DNA of 64,000 bases, from contig CAYYFQ010000010.1 of the NCBI GenBank assembly GCA_964471475.1, positions 684 to 64,683 on the forward strand, in the 5' to 3' direction. Shown here piece after piece: positions 9,162-58,057 of the stretch. The stretch is from an uncultured Gammaproteobacteria bacterium. GTDB lineage: Bacteria > Pseudomonadota > Gammaproteobacteria > CAISUE01. Positions within the stretch are counted from its first letter, which is position 1, and every line of letters starts with the position of its first letter. Below the pieces are notes generated by a model. It ran no database searches. It had not been told where the DNA came from and was given only the letters and a program-made list of their open reading frames with translations. Position numbers and translations under genes: made by a program.

Positions 9162-12100
9162 TTAAGCCGTGGTTTGTGCAATTCCATACAAAATACCCGC
9201 GGTAAAATTTGATGGTGTCGCAATGGCAGCAGGGGGAGTGGCATTAGAAGGATAGGCCCAATTGCTTCCAGCAAGATTGGAAGAACTCATCACCAAAGGC
9301 TTTTGTAAGCCACTAGTGGTATATGAAAAACCATCCGCAAAACATACTCCGGTAGTAGCGGAACAACTCACCCCATTGAATGAGCCTGAAAAACTTAAAT
9401 TAGTGGCTGCTAATGTCCACGCCGTAGTTCCATAATTATTGTTACTCATGGCTAATGGGGTCGTTGGAGCCAGTGATCCCGTAGCTGTTTGGTTACCTAC
9501 TGCCACACAGTAAGGGCTTGGGCTACTTGGGGTCCCTGCACAGCTTACCCCATTAAACACCGCAGAAACAGGAGAAGTATCCACTGGAATTAGTGTAAAA
9601 GAAGCACTCGGTGCTAACTGTGCGTAAATTAATGCATTTGATATGGTGGCAGACGTATAATGTTGGCCTGCAACCACAAAAGCCCCCGTACTATTCACAG
9701 TAATTCCATTAACTGTCACATTCGTTTGCCCAAAATTATTAGGAGTTTGTGCTGCCCAATCTAGCGCATTTCCCGCATTATAATAAACTCCTAATGCATT
9801 TGCACCAGTACCTCCAGCAAAATTATTACCAATAGCCATGCATTGCTGCGTAACTGTGCTGCAAGCAACGCCTGTTAACTGCGTACTTGATGCGCTGGGG
9901 AAATTAAGAGGTACTCCTGAATTCCAAGAACTTCCGCTATTTGAGCTGGAATACACAATAGGATAAAAGACGCCGCTACTGGTGTAATATCCTGCAATAT
10001 GACAATAAGTGCTGCCTCCATTCACCGCACACGTGATCCCCGTTAATGTTAAGGGATTATTGGAGGGAGCATAAAGAAGAATGGGTGAAATACCCCATGT
10101 TAATCCTTTATCGGAGCTTTGATAGACGTAACCAGCATTTAAGGTTCCAGAAGTACCTGAACCTATCGCAAGACAAGTATTCGTCCCCGCAATACATGTC
10201 ACTGCGCTCATTGTCAAATTTTCAGAGTTAAGCGGCAAGATGTAACTCGAAATATAAAAAGGGGTGCTTTGCGCAGGATAAGTCCCGAGTGTATAAGTAA
10301 ACGGAAGATGAGCCGTCGCCGCCGTAGAATAACTTCCTACCGCCACCGTCCCGGTGGAAGCAAGCTGTAAACTCGCACTCCCTACCACGCTATCTGTGGA
10401 AGTGGCTTCAATGGTGGTTGCCCCTATGGTGGTACCGGGCGATGCCACATTAGCCGCCAGCGAGACAATATTTGCCGTAGTTGATGTCCAGGTGACAAGA
10501 CTCGTCACATCATGACTGGATCCATCTGATTCGTTAGCTGTTGCCGTGTAAGTGATGGGAGAAGAAGTAAAGGTGATCGTAGAAGTAGCGGGAGCTACGC
10601 TAATAGACAAAACAATAGGACTTCCCGCTGTCAGAGTAACCGTTGAACTGATAGCGCCTACTTGCGCTTGAATCGTCGTGTGGTGACCCACAGTAGCCGC
10701 TGGTAACACGGGTGCATTGGCATAAGACCCTGAAGTGCTCTCTACAACGGTAAGAGGCGAAGCCACGATAGTGGTATCACTTGAAGTCCACGTAGCTTGA
10801 TCAGTGACATCATGGGTACTACTATCCGTATACGTCCCCAATGCGGTAAAGTGTTGACTGGTACCTACCGCCACTGTAAGGCTCCCTGGACTAATAGCAA
10901 TGGATTGTAAAGTAGCAGCGGTTACTGTCAACACATCAGCCGTGCCATTAGAGACTGTATACGTTGTGCCCCCTATGGTTTCTTGATACGTCGCATTAAT
11001 ATTGCTAGTACCCGTGGTCAAAGTACTGGCCAATCCCGAGCTGGAAATAGTAGCGACATTTTTATTGCTAGAAGTCCATGTGACCCCACTTTGGTATTTG
11101 GTACTACTCTTATCCGCAAAGGTCACTAAAGCAGTAAATTGTTGCGAAGCCCCAAGACCAATCGTTGGGTTAATAGGAGAAATAGTCAATGTGATAGGAA
11201 CTGGGCCTCCTATCGTTAAACTTGCTGTGGCTGAAGGCCCTCCGGTTCCCAGTTGCGCTGTGATAGTGACCGGTGTGGAGTTTTGACTGACCGCCGTTGC
11301 AAGCCCATGAGAACCTGCGGCATTACTGATGGTAGCCACCTCTGTATTACTTGAACTCCATGTGACATTCCCCGTAACATCTTGAGTGCTTCCATCTGTA
11401 AAGACGGCGGTGGCGGCATACTGCTGCGTGCCACCAACACCGACGCCAGTTAGCACAGGAATAGTTTGTGTAGCGGGGGAAATCGTAATATGGTCAATAC
11501 CTTTTACCGTCACGCTAGCTGAAGGAAAAGCCGAAATAGAGCCTACACTAGCAGTCACCCTGGTCGTCCCCGCTTTCACACCACTCACCGTCCCACCAGG
11601 AGGACTAGTAATGGAAGTTGCTGTGGCAATAGTAGGATCAGCACTTGTCCAAGTGGCAACAATTGCTTTGCTGGTTCCATCGCTATAATGTCCAATAGCT
11701 TGCCCGGCTACTGACGTGAGCCCGACACCTACCGTGTAAGAAGTCGGGCTCATGGTAATAGAGGTAAGCGCAGCAGCTTCGGCCGTCAGAGTCGCTGATG
11801 CACTAATGCTACCGGATGTCGCCACAATGCTTGCGGTGCCACTTGGGGCGATTGCGGTAGCAACACCGGTAGAGGAGTCAATTCTCGCTACGCTTGTCCC
11901 AGGCGGGTTAACAACACTCCAAATAACATCCGTAAATGGAGTAATCACCCTTCCATTGGACAGTGTCCCCGCGGCAATATAGGTTTGAGTTTTTCCATTA
12001 GGGACTACCGCACTGGAAGGCGCTACCGCAAGAGAAAGGAGAGTCGCGGGAACCACATTCACGGGGGTATTCGCGGAGACTCCTGTGGTGGCATCTGTAG

Positions 12101-13610
12101 CAATAATCGTTGTCGTTCCAGACACGCCTGGTGTTGCATAACCTTGTGTAGGAGAAGTGTTACTCACTGTCAAAATGCTCGTGTCTCCTGTTGTCCAATT
12201 CACCGAGTTGGTGATCGTCCCTGTTGATCCATCCGAATAGGTACCTGTAGCAGTAAATGCAGTAGGAGCACTCCCTTCCACCAGCGATGGTGAGGTAGGA
12301 GACAGCGTAATTTTAGTTAATACTTTGCTAGAAACGGTCAACGTGGTATTTCCACTAATATTGGTCCCTGGATCAGCCGCGGTAATAAGGGTGCTTCCAG
12401 CGCTTAAAGTCGTAGCTACTCCTTGCGTATCAGCGCTATTGCTGATAGTTGCCACGCTCACATCTTTCGAGTTCCAAGTTACTTGAGTAGTAATATCGTG
12501 TTGCGAATTATCCGAAAAAGTTCCGGTAGCAGTAAATTGCTCAGTTCGGCCCAATGCAATATTTGGATTAGTCGGTTCCACCTCAATGGATTTAAGCGTA
12601 GCAGCTGTCACTTCTAGCCCTGTTTGTCCAGTAGTAGTCACCCCCGAAATAATAATACTTGCTGAAACCGTTGTACTTCCTGCGGAAAGCGGAGAAACTA
12701 ACCCACCTGCACTAATACTAGCCACGACCCCTCCAGAAGATTCTGCCCACGTCACTGAGCTGGTAAGATTTCTTTTACTTCCATCGGAATAATTTCCTGT
12801 CGCCGTATATTGTTGAGTAGTACCACCGGCTGTCAAGGTAATATTTGTCGGCGTGACAGTAATAGAGTCTAAACTGGCGGTGTTTACAGCAAGTGATCCA
12901 CTTCCTGAGATATTTTGAAAAGTCGCCGTAATGCTTGCAGTGCCAGGGCCATTTGCACTCACATTCCCGGTAGAAGGATCGACAGAGGCAATACTGTCAT
13001 CACTACTTGACCACGCCGCCACGGTGGAGATATCCCCGCTCACCGTTCCGCTAGAATCGGAGGCTGTTGCGGCATATTGATAACTTTGTCCCACATATAA
13101 CGTATTGCTGGAAGGAGTCACGGTAATAGACGTTGCAGGAATGGCTTGCACATTCCAAGGTTGGTTATAACCCGTCCGGGCGGTACCGTCTTCGTTATAA
13201 ACATACAGTTCTGGAATATTATTGACGCTACCCGTAACAAGTAATTTCACTTCACAGCTATCACTCCCATCAGAGGCACCTGCGGGAGATAAGTCAAATT
13301 GACTGCCACAAATACCCGTGCCGGTTGTCACGAGTTGCGTATTATTAGGGATGGCTTCTACATAATTATTTTTTAAATAATGCGACGTATGGTTTGATAC
13401 TTTAAAATAAGCAGCGGTCTGTCCCTTATCGATCACTTGAGTGGGGAGATTAAGCCCCACAATAGTAAAGGCGCCTCCTTGAAAACGAGCACTTATTTCA
13501 TCAAGAGCCGTATGCATTTTCGGAAAAAAATCAGATGAAAGTGCTTGCGCAGACGAGAACAGCACACTCATCATGAACAAAAGAATAAAATGGATAAAAT
13601 AACGTCTCAT
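9162..13610 (-). CDS. Secreted adhesin-like protein: signal peptide, N-terminal Cys-containing domain, 10 Big_2 (Lig/intimin-type) Ig repeats, C-terminal Cys-rich beta-propeller
   Basis: Sec signal (..LFSSAQA); ten ~90-aa repeats of pattern SIxVxP..G.TQQFTATGxYSDGS..DVT..VTWxSS..VATIS..G; C-terminal xGVxC..CxAxG blades and an Asp-box SSDKGLTW. Confidence 0.85.
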   Translation of the reverse strand: MRRYFIHFILLFMMSVLFSSAQALSSDFFPKMHTALDEISARFQGGAFTIVGLNLPTQVIDKGQTAAYFKVSNHTSHYLKNNYVEAIPNNTQLVTTGTGICGSQFDLSPAGASDGSDSCEVKLLVTGSVNNIPELYVYNEDGTARTGYNQPWNVQAIPATSITVTPSSNTLYVGQSYQYAATASDSSGTVSGDISTVAAWSSSDDSIASVDPSTGNVSANGPGTASITATFQNISGSGSLAVNTASLDSITVTPTNITLTAGGTTQQYTATGNYSDGSKRNLTSSVTWAESSGGVVASISAGGLVSPLSAGSTTVSASIIISGVTTTGQTGLEVTAATLKSIEVEPTNPNIALGRTEQFTATGTFSDNSQHDITTQVTWNSKDVSVATISNSADTQGVATTLSAGSTLITAADPGTNISGNTTLTVSSKVLTKITLSPTSPSLVEGSAPTAFTATGTYSDGSTGTITNSVNWTTGDTSILTVSNTSPTQGYATPGVSGTTTIIATDATTGVSANTPVNVVPATLLSLAVAPSSAVVPNGKTQTYIAAGTLSNGRVITPFTDVIWSVVNPPGTSVARIDSSTGVATAIAPSGTASIVATSGSISASATLTAEAAALTSITMSPTSYTVGVGLTSVAGQAIGHYSDGTSKAIVATWTSADPTIATATSITSPPGGTVSGVKAGTTRVTASVGSISAFPSASVTVKGIDHITISPATQTIPVLTGVGVGGTQQYAATAVFTDGSTQDVTGNVTWSSSNTEVATISNAAGSHGLATAVSQNSTPVTITAQLGTGGPSATASLTIGGPVPITLTISPINPTIGLGASQQFTALVTFADKSSTKYQSGVTWTSSNKNVATISSSGLASTLTTGTSNINATYQETIGGTTYTVSNGTADVLTVTAATLQSIAISPGSLTVAVGTSQHFTALGTYTDSSTHDVTDQATWTSSDTTIVASPLTVVESTSGSYANAPVLPAATVGHHTTIQAQVGAISSTVTLTAGSPIVLSISVAPATSTITFTSSPITYTATANESDGSSHDVTSLVTWTSTTANIVSLAANVASPGTTIGATTIEATSTDSVVGSASLQLASTGTVAVGSYSTAATAHLPFTYTLGTYPAQSTPFYISSYILPLNSENLTMSAVTCIAGTNTCLAIGSGTSGTLNAGYVYQSSDKGLTWGISPILLYAPSNNPLTLTGITCAVNGGSTYCHIAGYYTSSGVFYPIVYSSSNSGSSWNSGVPLNFPSASSTQLTGVACSTVTQQCMAIGNNFAGGTGANALGVYYNAGNALDWAAQTPNNFGQTNVTVNGITVNSTGAFVVAGQHYTSATISNALIYAQLAPSASFTLIPVDTSPVSAVFNGVSCAGTPSSPSPYCVAVGNQTATGSLAPTTPLAMSNNNYGTTAWTLAATNLSFSGSFNGVSCSATTGVCFADGFSYTTSGLQKPLVMSSSNLAGSNWAYPSNATPPAAIATPSNFTAGILYGIAQTTA

Positions 13611-13614
13611 TGAG

Positions 13615-15075
13615 TTATAAAATAACCGTTAATTGCGCAAGTAATGCTTTTGTCGTTAAACTCGATTGTTTTAGCTCTCCAGCAACGGGTGTGACATTTC
13701 CATAGCTGATGATGCTAGCCCCCGCCGTGGAAGTTTCCCCTAAGTGACTAAACCGATACCCTGCACCTAAGCGTATATTTTGTGTTAAATCCACATCCAC
13801 ACCTAAACCTAAACTATAAGTAAACGAATTTACGGTATGTTCTGGAAAACTTAGTGTTGTAGTATCTGTAGGAGAGACACTGGTATCGACGGAAGAGGTT
13901 TTGTTGATTGATTCTCCCAACCCAACATAAGCATAGGGGTGAAAATATTTTCTAGTGGTGAAAAAGATTTTGTTATCCAATAACCATTGTTGAGTAAAAA
14001 CGGTATACCGATATTTATAAGTAGTGGTGGTAGGGGCAATCGTTTGATTAAGATCCCCCACCACATTCGTTGAATTTTGTGTCATATACCCTAAGCCAAT
14101 TTGCCAAGCAATGTCGTGAGGAAAGCGTAACTCATCCCCCACTGAAATCCCATATTCCCCTACTGTACTACCACTATTCGACGCGTCATAACTGTAGCCT
14201 GTAATACCGTAAGAAGTGGTAAGGCTCGTGTTTCCCAGATTAGTCCAAGCAGGACCACCCGAGAGGGTAAGGTAAGGGTGTCTATAATTCACTTGAATTT
14301 TTTGCAGTAAGTTCGTTTTTTTCTCAACAAGTGGTAATGGTGCATGATAGTCAGCACAAGGAATAGTAGGTTGCAGATAGCTGATTGTGCTCTTACTGGT
14401 AACGATGGACGAGAGCGCTTTACGCCGAACACGCGATTTAGTGTGGTGGTGATGGTAATGTATGACTTGTTTTGTATGGTATGTGGATGATTGCTTAGGC
14501 ATTACAGTTACTTTTCTAACTATTACTTTTTGGGTAATACGTGTAGGTGGCACAGAAGTAGTCGCCACAGGTATAAGTAACGGATGCACTCCTCCAGCAG
14601 GTGCAATTGATACTGATGGTGCTTGCATTGAAGACGGCTTCACAAGGGGGGCCTTAGCCTTAACTGGTGAAACCGTTTTTACCGGAGACACGTTGACTGA
14701 AGGTGCTGTCACTGGAAGAGCTGCTTTAACAGAGAGTGCGTTAACTGGGAGCGTTGTAGCTGGCGGCTTTGGCACTGACGGTGTCTTACTTGGAGAGGGG
14801 TTAACAAGAAGCCCTTTGACGGAAGGCGGTTTAGTGAGCGGCTCTTTCACCGGAGGCACAGGAACACTCATCCCTGTAGGGCCAATTGAAGCCATCACAG
14901 TAACAGGGGTGGTAGAAACCGGCGGTGCAATGGAAGACTTAGAGGGAGAAACTACTTGCTGTGTTTTTGTGGAAGGCAGGTTGTTATCATCCATACTGGA
15001 AGCAAAAAAAGCAACTGTCCCTAAAAAACAGGCCCCCACCACTAAGCTGATTATAAATAAAGTTTTCCGTTGCAT
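13615..15075 (-). CDS. Outer-membrane beta-barrel (OmpA-like/Omp25 type) with long N-terminal Pro/Ser/Thr/Val-rich stalk
   Basis: Hydrophobic N-terminus, ~200-aa P/S/T/V/K-rich region, then amphipathic strands (YLTLSGGPAW, PYAYVGLGES, FTYSLGLGVDV, RLGAGYRFSHLG). ORF track starts at 15099; ATG 15075 preferred. Confidence 0.8.
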   Translation of the reverse strand: MQRKTLFIISLVVGACFLGTVAFFASSMDDNNLPSTKTQQVVSPSKSSIAPPVSTTPVTVMASIGPTGMSVPVPPVKEPLTKPPSVKGLLVNPSPSKTPSVPKPPATTLPVNALSVKAALPVTAPSVNVSPVKTVSPVKAKAPLVKPSSMQAPSVSIAPAGGVHPLLIPVATTSVPPTRITQKVIVRKVTVMPKQSSTYHTKQVIHYHHHHTKSRVRRKALSSIVTSKSTISYLQPTIPCADYHAPLPLVEKKTNLLQKIQVNYRHPYLTLSGGPAWTNLGNTSLTTSYGITGYSYDASNSGSTVGEYGISVGDELRFPHDIAWQIGLGYMTQNSTNVVGDLNQTIAPTTTTYKYRYTVFTQQWLLDNKIFFTTRKYFHPYAYVGLGESINKTSSVDTSVSPTDTTTLSFPEHTVNSFTYSLGLGVDVDLTQNIRLGAGYRFSHLGETSTAGASIISYGNVTPVAGELKQSSLTTKALLAQLTVIL

Positions 15076-15190
15076 CGCATTTCTCAATCTTAGTAACACA
15101 TCACATCATTTTCCACAGCAGGATGATACAGGAGAGGAAATCGCTTGACAACAATCAAATGCCCTGATGTATCCCTAAGTTTTTTTAAGT

Positions 15191-15340
15191 TTGTCATGCC
15201 AGCGTAGGCTGGCATCCAGGCAAGTAAGCATCCTGGGAAGTAAAAGTGAAGCGTACCTATATTTGATAAGCTAAGATTTTCGTCGCTTACATTACCTAAA
15301 AACATGCTTAACTGGATGCCAGCCTTCGCTGGCATGACAA
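15191..15340. repeat. Palindromic element family B copy 1 (dRS3/RPE4/WPE-like, translates as MPAKAGIQ...WMPAYAGMT)
   Basis: Inverted arms ttgtcatgccagcgtaggctggcatccag/ctggatgccagccttcgctggcatgacaa; further copies at 45361-45502 and 57910-58057. Confidence 0.9.
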
Positions 15341-15473
15341 CCGCTTAAGTTGACGCAGCAGTCTTCGCTGATATCACAACCGTTAGAAATTTTAGGGATA
15401 CATTAGTCAAATGCCTTTGACTCTCATTATAATTCTTCGTACAATCATCGATCAAAATTTTATTGAGAAAAAT

Positions 15474-45327: not shown

Positions 45328-45502
45328 GCATCAACTTAAGGAGTTTATGCTAAAAACCACTGTCATGCCAGCGTAGGCTGGCATCCAGTCAGGCATGCTT
45401 TTAGGTAATACAAGCGAAAAACCCTAGTTGAAGTTAAATGCACTTTATTTTTACTTCCCAAGATCCTTATTTACCTGGATGCCAGCCTACGCTGGCATGA
45501 CA
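45328..45502. repeat. Palindromic family B copy 2 with 33-bp leader segment
   Basis: Arms at 45361 and ending 45502; core inverted relative to the other copies; preceded by gcatcaacttaaggagtttatgctaaaaaccac as at 57821-57853; overlaps the metIQ stop. Confidence 0.88.
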
Positions 45503-57797: not shown

Positions 57798-58057
57798 TGT
57801 CATGCCAGCGTAGGCTCATGGCGTCAACTTAAGGAGCTTATGCTAAGAACCACTGTCATGCCAGCGTAGGCTCATAGCGTCAACTTAAGGCGCTTATGCT
57901 AAGAACCACTGTCATGCCAGCGTAGGCTGGCATCCAGGCAAATAAGGATCTTGGGAAGTAACAGTAAAGTGTACTTAACTTCGTAAACTAAAATTTTCAT
58001 CGCTTGCATTGCCTAAAAACATACTTAACTGGATGCCAGCTTACGCTGGCATGACAA
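57798..58057. repeat. Two tandem 56-bp units followed by palindromic family B copy 3
   Basis: Unit tgtcatgccagcgtaggctcat(g/a)gcgtcaacttaagg(a/c)gcttatgctaagaaccac at 57798 and 57854; full element 57910-58057. Confidence 0.9.

Follow-up and report, generated by a model that had tools for sequence, protein, structure and literature searches.

In a 64,000-nt stretch of DNA from an uncultured Gammaproteobacteria bacterium (contig CAYYFQ010000010.1, positions 684 to 64,683; called the window below), two adjacent genes encode one small outer-membrane barrel protein, P0001, and one large secreted protein with an array of immunoglobulin (Ig)-like repeats, P0002. The locus raises two questions: what a small barrel could do for so large a neighbor, and which part of that neighbor it is paired with. 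Our analysis indicated that the barrel is conserved together with one ~110-residue domain located at the N-terminus of the secreted protein, and not with the Ig array. We propose, with a probability of roughly 0.5, that the window pair represents a modular docking cassette, the barrel serving as an anchor to which the partner is attached via this N-terminal domain (N-domain). Direct support exists for the pairing of the two genes, for the folds, for co-occurrence and co-divergence of the two components and for the modular nature of the passengers, whereas physical docking, surface location and a role in adhesion are inferred.

Both genes are located on the minus strand. The barrel gene (13615–15099) encodes 494 residues when read from a GTG codon; the likely true start is the ATG at position 15075, which gives a protein of 486 residues and agrees with the 486-residue database protein P0004. 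The TAA stop codon of the barrel gene (13615–13617) is separated from the ATG of the partner gene at position 13610 by one 4-nt spacer, ctca (13611–13614, minus strand). The partner gene (9162–13610) encodes 1482 residues. Since a gap of 4 nt is too short for a promoter, the two genes form one operon, and translational coupling between them is possible. The first-pass annotation, which was made from the sequence of the window alone, had inferred an operon from the same gap; both open reading frames (ORFs) and the exact 4-nt distance were reproduced.

The first-pass annotation had also suggested that homologues of the barrel gene should be checked for neighboring Ig-repeat genes. In the two closest genomes, a secreted protein is encoded behind each good barrel paralogue; the passengers of these proteins are unlike each other: P0008 (1901 residues) contains 17 Big_2 repeats, P0007 is thaumatin-like, P0006 is weakly NlpC/P60-like and P0005 is of unknown type. 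Common to all partner proteins is the N-domain, which is ∼110 residues in length and lies directly behind the signal peptide. The approximate motif of this domain is ..Y.VTN.T...LP..V......C...F.L....SC.L.L..., in which the Cys pair is nearly invariant.

Profiles of the N-domain and of the barrel were searched against the same set of 300 genomes, sampled evenly from the class. The N-domain profile gave 14 matches in 10 of the 300 genomes. A family barrel is located immediately upstream on the same strand in 11 of the 14 matches; among the other three, one has a divergent barrel, one lies at a contig edge and one has no barrel. The barrel profile was positive in 18 of the 300 genomes, with 35 barrel loci in total; using an iterated hidden Markov model (HMM), we observed an adjoining N-domain ORF at 21 of these loci, with the gene order reversed in two. 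On metagenome contigs carrying representative barrels, the pair was present in four of six informative cases. Altogether, at least 26 unique cassettes from about a dozen families were collected, and all 26 partners possess a Sec signal without lipobox that is directly followed by the N-domain. In the 24 barrel-first cassettes, the distance between the barrel stop and the partner start is 0–71 nt; it is exactly 9 nt in eight cassettes of different families (L011, two in L072, L073, L074, L075, L076 and L088), which may reflect a conserved translational-coupling arrangement.

Different from the N-domain, the passengers vary widely from cassette to cassette. They include Big_2 arrays, propellers of BNR/YCF48-like, lactonase-like and Rax2-like types, thaumatin and Lcl_C domains, ASH/HYDIN-type Ig repeats and one weak NlpC/P60 match; Lcl_C forms the lectin-like head in the collagen-like adhesin of Legionella. 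Taken together, these observations indicated that the conserved partner of the barrel is the N-domain, and that the Big_2 array belongs to a varied set of passengers that can replace one another. The suspected link between barrel and Ig-repeat genes thus turned out to be a conserved two-gene unit, whose constant element is the N-domain and not the Ig array.

Several of the collected cassettes look damaged. In L075 (G257:C56, 3361–5457), one in-frame stop right behind the N-domain interrupts the partner; the partner of L077 (G063:C3, 4924–6019) is frameshifted, and the barrel of L074 (G057:C7, 3–843) is split over two ORFs. These three cassettes are either pseudogenes or assembly errors. We also considered partners consisting of the N-domain alone, suggested by ORFs of 137–142 residues in G257 and G063; this idea was dropped, as the following ORFs are in frame past the stop or frameshifted, and the short ORFs probably result from gene breakage or mis-assembly. 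The N-domain matches found outside the class (G334, G404 and G643) were all weak. They were rejected as cassettes, since they fall on generic Ig repeats arranged in tandem within giant proteins, and no barrel is located in their vicinity.

No Pfam model exists for the N-domain, and searches of Pfam, NCBIfam and PDB sequences were empty for it, as they were for the N-terminal extension of P0001 and for the C-terminal domain of P0002. A word-indexed homologue search, which is an insensitive method, returned the self-cluster alone, both for the N-domain region of P0160 and for the full barrel protein. The AlphaFold2 (AF2) model of the N-domain has a pLDDT (predicted local distance difference test) value of 94 and shows, with confidence, an Ig-like sandwich of generic type; PapD/HYDIN-like and macroglobulin-like domains resemble it with a template modeling (TM) score of about 0.6. 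One of its structural neighbors in AFDB is A0A0W0YN84, which we take, from its accession series, to be an entry of the genus Legionella.

In P0002, the N-domain covers residues ∼46–160 (13131–13475, minus strand), as judged from the alignments and the AF2 model, and its Cys pair is formed by C101 and C119. It is preceded by one Sec-type signal peptide (residues 1–23; 13542–13610, minus strand), which was read by eye as MRRYF...SAQA, cleaved before LS. The signal peptide, MRRYFIHFILLFMMSVLFSSAQA, cleaved before L, is free of Cys and therefore holds no lipobox. The N-domain is followed by ten tandem Big_2-type Ig-like repeats (residues 160–1083; 10362–13133, minus strand); Big_2 (PF02368) matched with an E-value of 1e-55 and seven stretches passing, and a self-built repeat HMM found exactly 10 repeats. 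The first-pass annotation had described an adhesin with ten Ig repeats and a Sec signal, without barrel, lipobox or RTX signal of its own. The repeat count agrees with our HMM, and the remaining features with our reading of the signal and with the Pfam search, by which RTX, barrel and TPS (two-partner secretion) domains are absent from P0002.

The C-terminal region of P0002 (∼380 residues; 9165–10313, minus strand) is a repeat domain, probably a BNR/Asp-box-type β-propeller. It contains two canonical Asp boxes, SSDKGLTW and SSNSGSSW, together with some degenerate ones, and its blades follow the pattern G(V/I)xC...C.A.G. BLASTP aligned it with the propeller of the G109 cassette partner, which has PSII_BNR/BNR_2 matches, with an E-value of 2e-4; a Pfam search with residues 1070–1482 gave no match even at E ≤ 1.

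P0001 contains one hydrophobic N-terminal signal, one low-complexity extension, one HYHHHH stretch with a basic patch and one C-terminal OMP_b-brl domain. The barrel domain (residues ∼272–494; 13618–14286, minus strand) ends in the strand LAQLTVIL. PF13505 (OMP_b-brl) matched residues 292–455 with 34.2 bits, compared to a cut-off of 28.7; at sequence level, no solved structure matched the barrel beyond one marginal match to Opa. The barrel is 8-stranded and of NspA/OmpA/OmpW-like fold; a 10-stranded barrel (OmpT/OpcA), suggested by the Foldseek ranking, was ruled out by VIA-align. As the first-pass annotation had stated, it is a small OmpA-like barrel, and not one of TpsB or inverse-autotransporter (IAT) type; no POTRA, TPS or IAT domains are present. 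The C-terminus of P0001, LLAQLTVIL, follows the family consensus LAQLTxxx, in which the final residue is F, L or I; it is hydrophobic, but not the canonical Phe.

The barrel family was defined by an exhaustive phmmer search with residues 240–494 of P0001; at E ≤ 1e-3 it comprises 869 representative proteins, a number that falls to 320 at E ≤ 1e-10. Most members are ∼250 residues in length and consist of the signal and the barrel only. A minority possesses N-terminal extensions, which are of His/Lys/Pro/Thr-rich low complexity and resemble that of P0001. At the position of the extension, homologues P0071 and P0145 carry one peptidoglycan-binding SPOR domain, and the same architecture is seen in an Atlas cluster of 136 proteins that combine SPOR and barrel. 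One metagenomic protein of the family, P0116 (902 residues), is unusual in having four tandem OMP_b-brl barrels in one chain.

The extension of P0001 (residues ∼36–255; 14335–14994, minus strand) was delimited by composition; it is ∼220 residues in length, is rich in P, V, S, T and K (16% P, 14% V and 13% S) and ends with the HYHHHH stretch and the basic patch. In an even-stranded outer-membrane barrel, both ends of the chain are periplasmic. Owing to this topology and to the SPOR domains at the same position in homologues, the extension of P0001 is probably periplasmic. The first-pass annotation had called the barrel stalked: the P/V/S/T/K-rich stretch with its HHHH run exists, but it is probably not a surface stalk.

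Without a pore through which a polypeptide could pass, the 8-stranded barrel can anchor a protein but cannot translocate it; because the barrel is too narrow for an export pore, the partner would need another route across the outer membrane. This bears on one alternative, namely that the barrel takes part in export itself through a new co-assembly or secretion route dependent on the β-barrel assembly machinery (BAM). Such a pair would in effect be a split autotransporter, and folding of the barrel would carry the N-terminus of the partner across the membrane. The order of barrel, Ig array and C-terminal lectin-like domain does mimic intimin and invasin, the tight coupling (4–9 nt) would deliver both proteins together, and no other export machine is evident in the window's family. 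However, not only does the barrel have no usable pore, but the partner is also equipped with a separate signal peptide, and its mature N-terminus begins right with a folded domain held by a disulfide bond, which leaves no linker to thread. Moreover, no natural barrel–partner fusions were found among the 150 best barrel homologues. We therefore consider this alternative very improbable.

How long have the two components been together? Pairwise distances between barrels correlate with those between N-domains (Mantel r = 0.73, p ≤ 2e-4; none of 5000 permutations reached r), and for paralogues within one genome the correlation is r = 0.88. In 14 of 25 cassettes, the nearest neighbor is identical for barrel and N-domain, and it is often found in a distant genome. 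The paralogous cassettes are 20–30% identical. The genome of the window, G000, contains a second cassette outside the window (G000:C1:181496–183600; L006/L097); compared to the window copy, its barrel is 21% and its N-domain 17% identical, and its partner is ∼421 residues in length. The co-divergence and the low identity of the paralogues indicated that the cassettes are old units, which were inherited and duplicated whole while their passengers were exchanged. Co-divergence is consistent with cognate pairing; it is no proof of it.

Several observations weigh against docking. Co-divergence would be expected of any tightly linked genes. No partner could be detected at 14 of the 35 barrel loci, some of which lie at contig edges. 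The loops of the barrels are variable, and no conserved docking surface is evident; according to our reading of the DSSP string, the residues that are conserved across the family look structural and belong to the lumen or the periplasmic half. GspL and above-cut-off GspD were not found in G000, G001 and G002, which are 87%, 95% and 99% complete, respectively, and the partner may be periplasmic instead of surface-located. Lastly, Coxiella burnetii OmpA (CBU_1260), a characterized 8-stranded invasin, is encoded by a solo gene reported to lie outside any operon (PMC3961360).

The last example points to the possibility that the two products are envelope proteins that are expressed together without being physically linked. 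The barrel would then be an adhesin or invasin of its own, similar to Opa, PagN or Coxiella OmpA, the partner would be exported separately, and synteny would reflect shared regulation and inheritance. Barrels of the same 8-stranded fold do act alone as adhesins or invasins, PagN and Hra1 are among the Atlas neighbors, about 40% of the family barrels have no adjoining partner, and linkage alone could give the Mantel correlation. Co-regulation, however, leaves unexplained why only the N-domain is kept across diverse passengers, why it always comes first after the signal and why it is almost always found beside a barrel. Old paralogous cassettes within one genome, despite their divergence, are also still paired. 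We therefore regard independence of the two proteins as rather unlikely, and anchoring of the partner through the N-domain as the preferred reading.

By which route could the partner reach the cell surface? Both GspL and above-cut-off GspD are encoded by G109, G177 and G211. G000, G001 and G002 carry other secretins, which matched below the cut-off only. As GspL and GspD were missing from the searches of these three genomes, it is doubtful that the canonical type II secretion system (T2SS) is the universal export route. The partner might also stay inside the cell: its N-domain would bind the barrel, either at the periplasmic face or at the extension, and enzymes or propellers would be held under the outer membrane, as in Pal–TolB. 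This periplasmic tether would agree with the cassette having no dedicated translocator and the window's family no canonical T2SS that we could find, with conserved barrel residues located mostly towards the periplasmic half, with passengers that are propellers or NlpC/P60-like in some cassettes and with the periplasmic extensions, SPOR among them, of the barrel family. On the other hand, modules such as arrays of 10–17 Big_2 domains, lectin-like Lcl_C domains and thaumatin-like domains are typically extracellular. At ∼4 nm per Ig domain, the ten-Ig rod would be roughly 35–40 nm in length, and together with the propeller it would exceed the width of the periplasm. On balance, we judge a periplasmic location of the partner to be unlikely.

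In the docking model, the 8-stranded OmpA/NspA/Opa-like barrel encoded by the first gene would serve as membrane anchor, and the extension, where present, would tie it to the cell wall or periplasm. From the same mRNA, the second gene would produce a Sec-exported, non-lipidated protein, with the disulfide-containing Ig-like domain as its first folded module and the exchangeable passenger behind it. The protein would cross the outer membrane by another route, for instance a T2SS, a machine resembling a type IV pilus or co-assembly assisted by BAM. Its N-domain would dock non-covalently onto the cognate barrel. The passenger would be the functional head; in P0002, ten Ig domains would form a rod with a propeller at its tip that probably binds carbohydrate. 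Such a rod-like adhesin or lectin could be used for host-cell contact by an intracellular bacterium equipped with Dot/Icm.

The order to which the window genome belongs contains four genomes only, and the barrel family is present in all four. G000 encodes DotH/IcmK, which is also found in 15 of the 18 barrel-positive and 9 of the 10 N-domain-positive genomes, compared to 72 of the 300 genomes overall; these counts are descriptive, as related genomes are not independent. The cassette is thus concentrated in Dot/Icm-bearing Gammaproteobacteria. A broader proposal, which we put forward tentatively, is that it constitutes a dedicated display and anchoring system of Legionellales-type Dot/Icm bacteria. 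In such a system, the N-domain would address any Sec-exported, non-lipidated protein to its cognate barrel, with BAM co-assembly as a possible crossing route, and the cassette would be a T9SS (type IX secretion system)-free proteobacterial counterpart of PorP/type-B CTD (domain at the C-terminus) anchoring.

How non-lipidated proteins that are not autotransporters are placed on the Gram-negative surface is only partly understood, and the cassette offers a concrete, testable two-component system. Its carriers are mainly relatives of Legionella and Coxiella, in which adhesins and invasins are poorly known. If docking is true, two uncharacterized families could be named and assigned a function, sequence could be used to predict which proteins the carrier bacteria display on their surface, and a compact natural scaffold for outer-membrane display would be available.

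The regions flanking the operon contain several additional features. Upstream of the barrel gene, a consensus scan identified one promoter-like, weakly sigma-70-like site, TTGTCA-17-TATCAT (15123–15151, minus strand); it is rated weak, since sigma-70-like sites in the region are not more numerous than in shuffled sequence. Directly upstream of this site is an element of ∼240 bp between inverted repeats (15164–15406), which also occurs at ∼45362–45501 and ∼57911–58055. Inside the 15164–15406 copy, complementarity between the 34-nt palindromic arms (GTCATGCCAGCG.AGGCTGGCATCC) is 91%; the window contains six occurrences of the core motif, as three pairs, with zero expected. In appearance, the element resembles a miniature inverted-repeat transposable element (MITE) or a repetitive extragenic palindromic (REP) sequence. 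Directly downstream of the adhesin gene are two minus-strand ORFs of 1582 residues (4363–9111) and 1296 residues (78–3968), the former only 50 nt behind the adhesin stop. Both are rich in helical or coiled sequence and Dot/Icm effector-like in appearance; Pfam and NCBIfam searches gave no match for either.

No published description of the barrel/N-domain pair was found in the literature, and comparison with known systems sets it apart from each of them. Barrels of the NspA/Opa (Neisseria), PagN (Salmonella), Tia/Hek (E. coli), OmpA N-domain and OmpW/OprG types act alone through their loops. Different from these lone adhesin barrels, the present barrels form a distinct sequence family; a partner gene encoding a cognate domain is usually linked to them, and some have periplasmic extensions. 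With an 8-stranded barrel, two separate genes and no POTRA, TPS or IAT domain, the pair fits none of the classical type V subclasses, as the first-pass annotation had concluded.

Like the present pair, the inverse autotransporters of type Ve (intimin and invasin) have the module order of periplasmic region, barrel, Ig array and lectin-like head. Membership in type Ve was nevertheless rejected: there, a 12-stranded barrel and its passenger form one chain with a linker through the pore, whereas here we found two genes, eight strands, a separate signal peptide and no IAT_beta or LysM Pfam match. Type Vb two-partner secretion (TpsA/TpsB) likewise relies on an operon of a barrel and a large exoprotein with a conserved N-terminal domain. 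It was also rejected, because Pfam and NCBIfam found no 16-stranded Omp85 barrel, POTRA or TPS (Haemagg_act) domain in P0001 or P0002, and the N-domain is an Ig-like sandwich and not a β-helix.

The tandem Big_2 rod of P0002 is shared with Leptospira Lig and other Big_2 adhesins. P0002 is not a lipoprotein adhesin like LigA/LigB; instead of a lipobox, it carries the cassette N-domain and the propeller head. In LapA/LapE and RcsF–OmpA, a surface protein is likewise held by an outer-membrane barrel via its N-terminal region. LapA is a type I secretion system (T1SS) substrate without Sec signal in a TolC-like pore, and RcsF is a lipoprotein with a disordered linker that passes through the barrel; the present pair has neither of these features. 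A LapA-like RTX protein of the T1SS type was rejected for P0002, which has an N-terminal Sec signal and no RTX Pfam match, and whose neighbors are effector-like ORFs and not T1SS components.

The closest parallel comes from the type-B cargo of T9SS, in which diverse Sec-exported proteins with one conserved Ig-like domain are surface-anchored by an adjacently encoded cognate barrel (PMC9143113). The type-B CTD/PorP-SprF system belongs to Bacteroidota and uses a C-terminal domain, a PorP barrel and export by T9SS; the present cassette belongs to Gammaproteobacteria and combines an N-terminal domain with an OMP_b-brl barrel, T9SS genes having not been searched for. By analogy, we regard type-B CTD/PorP-SprF as the nearest working counterpart of the cassette, though not as a member of the same family.

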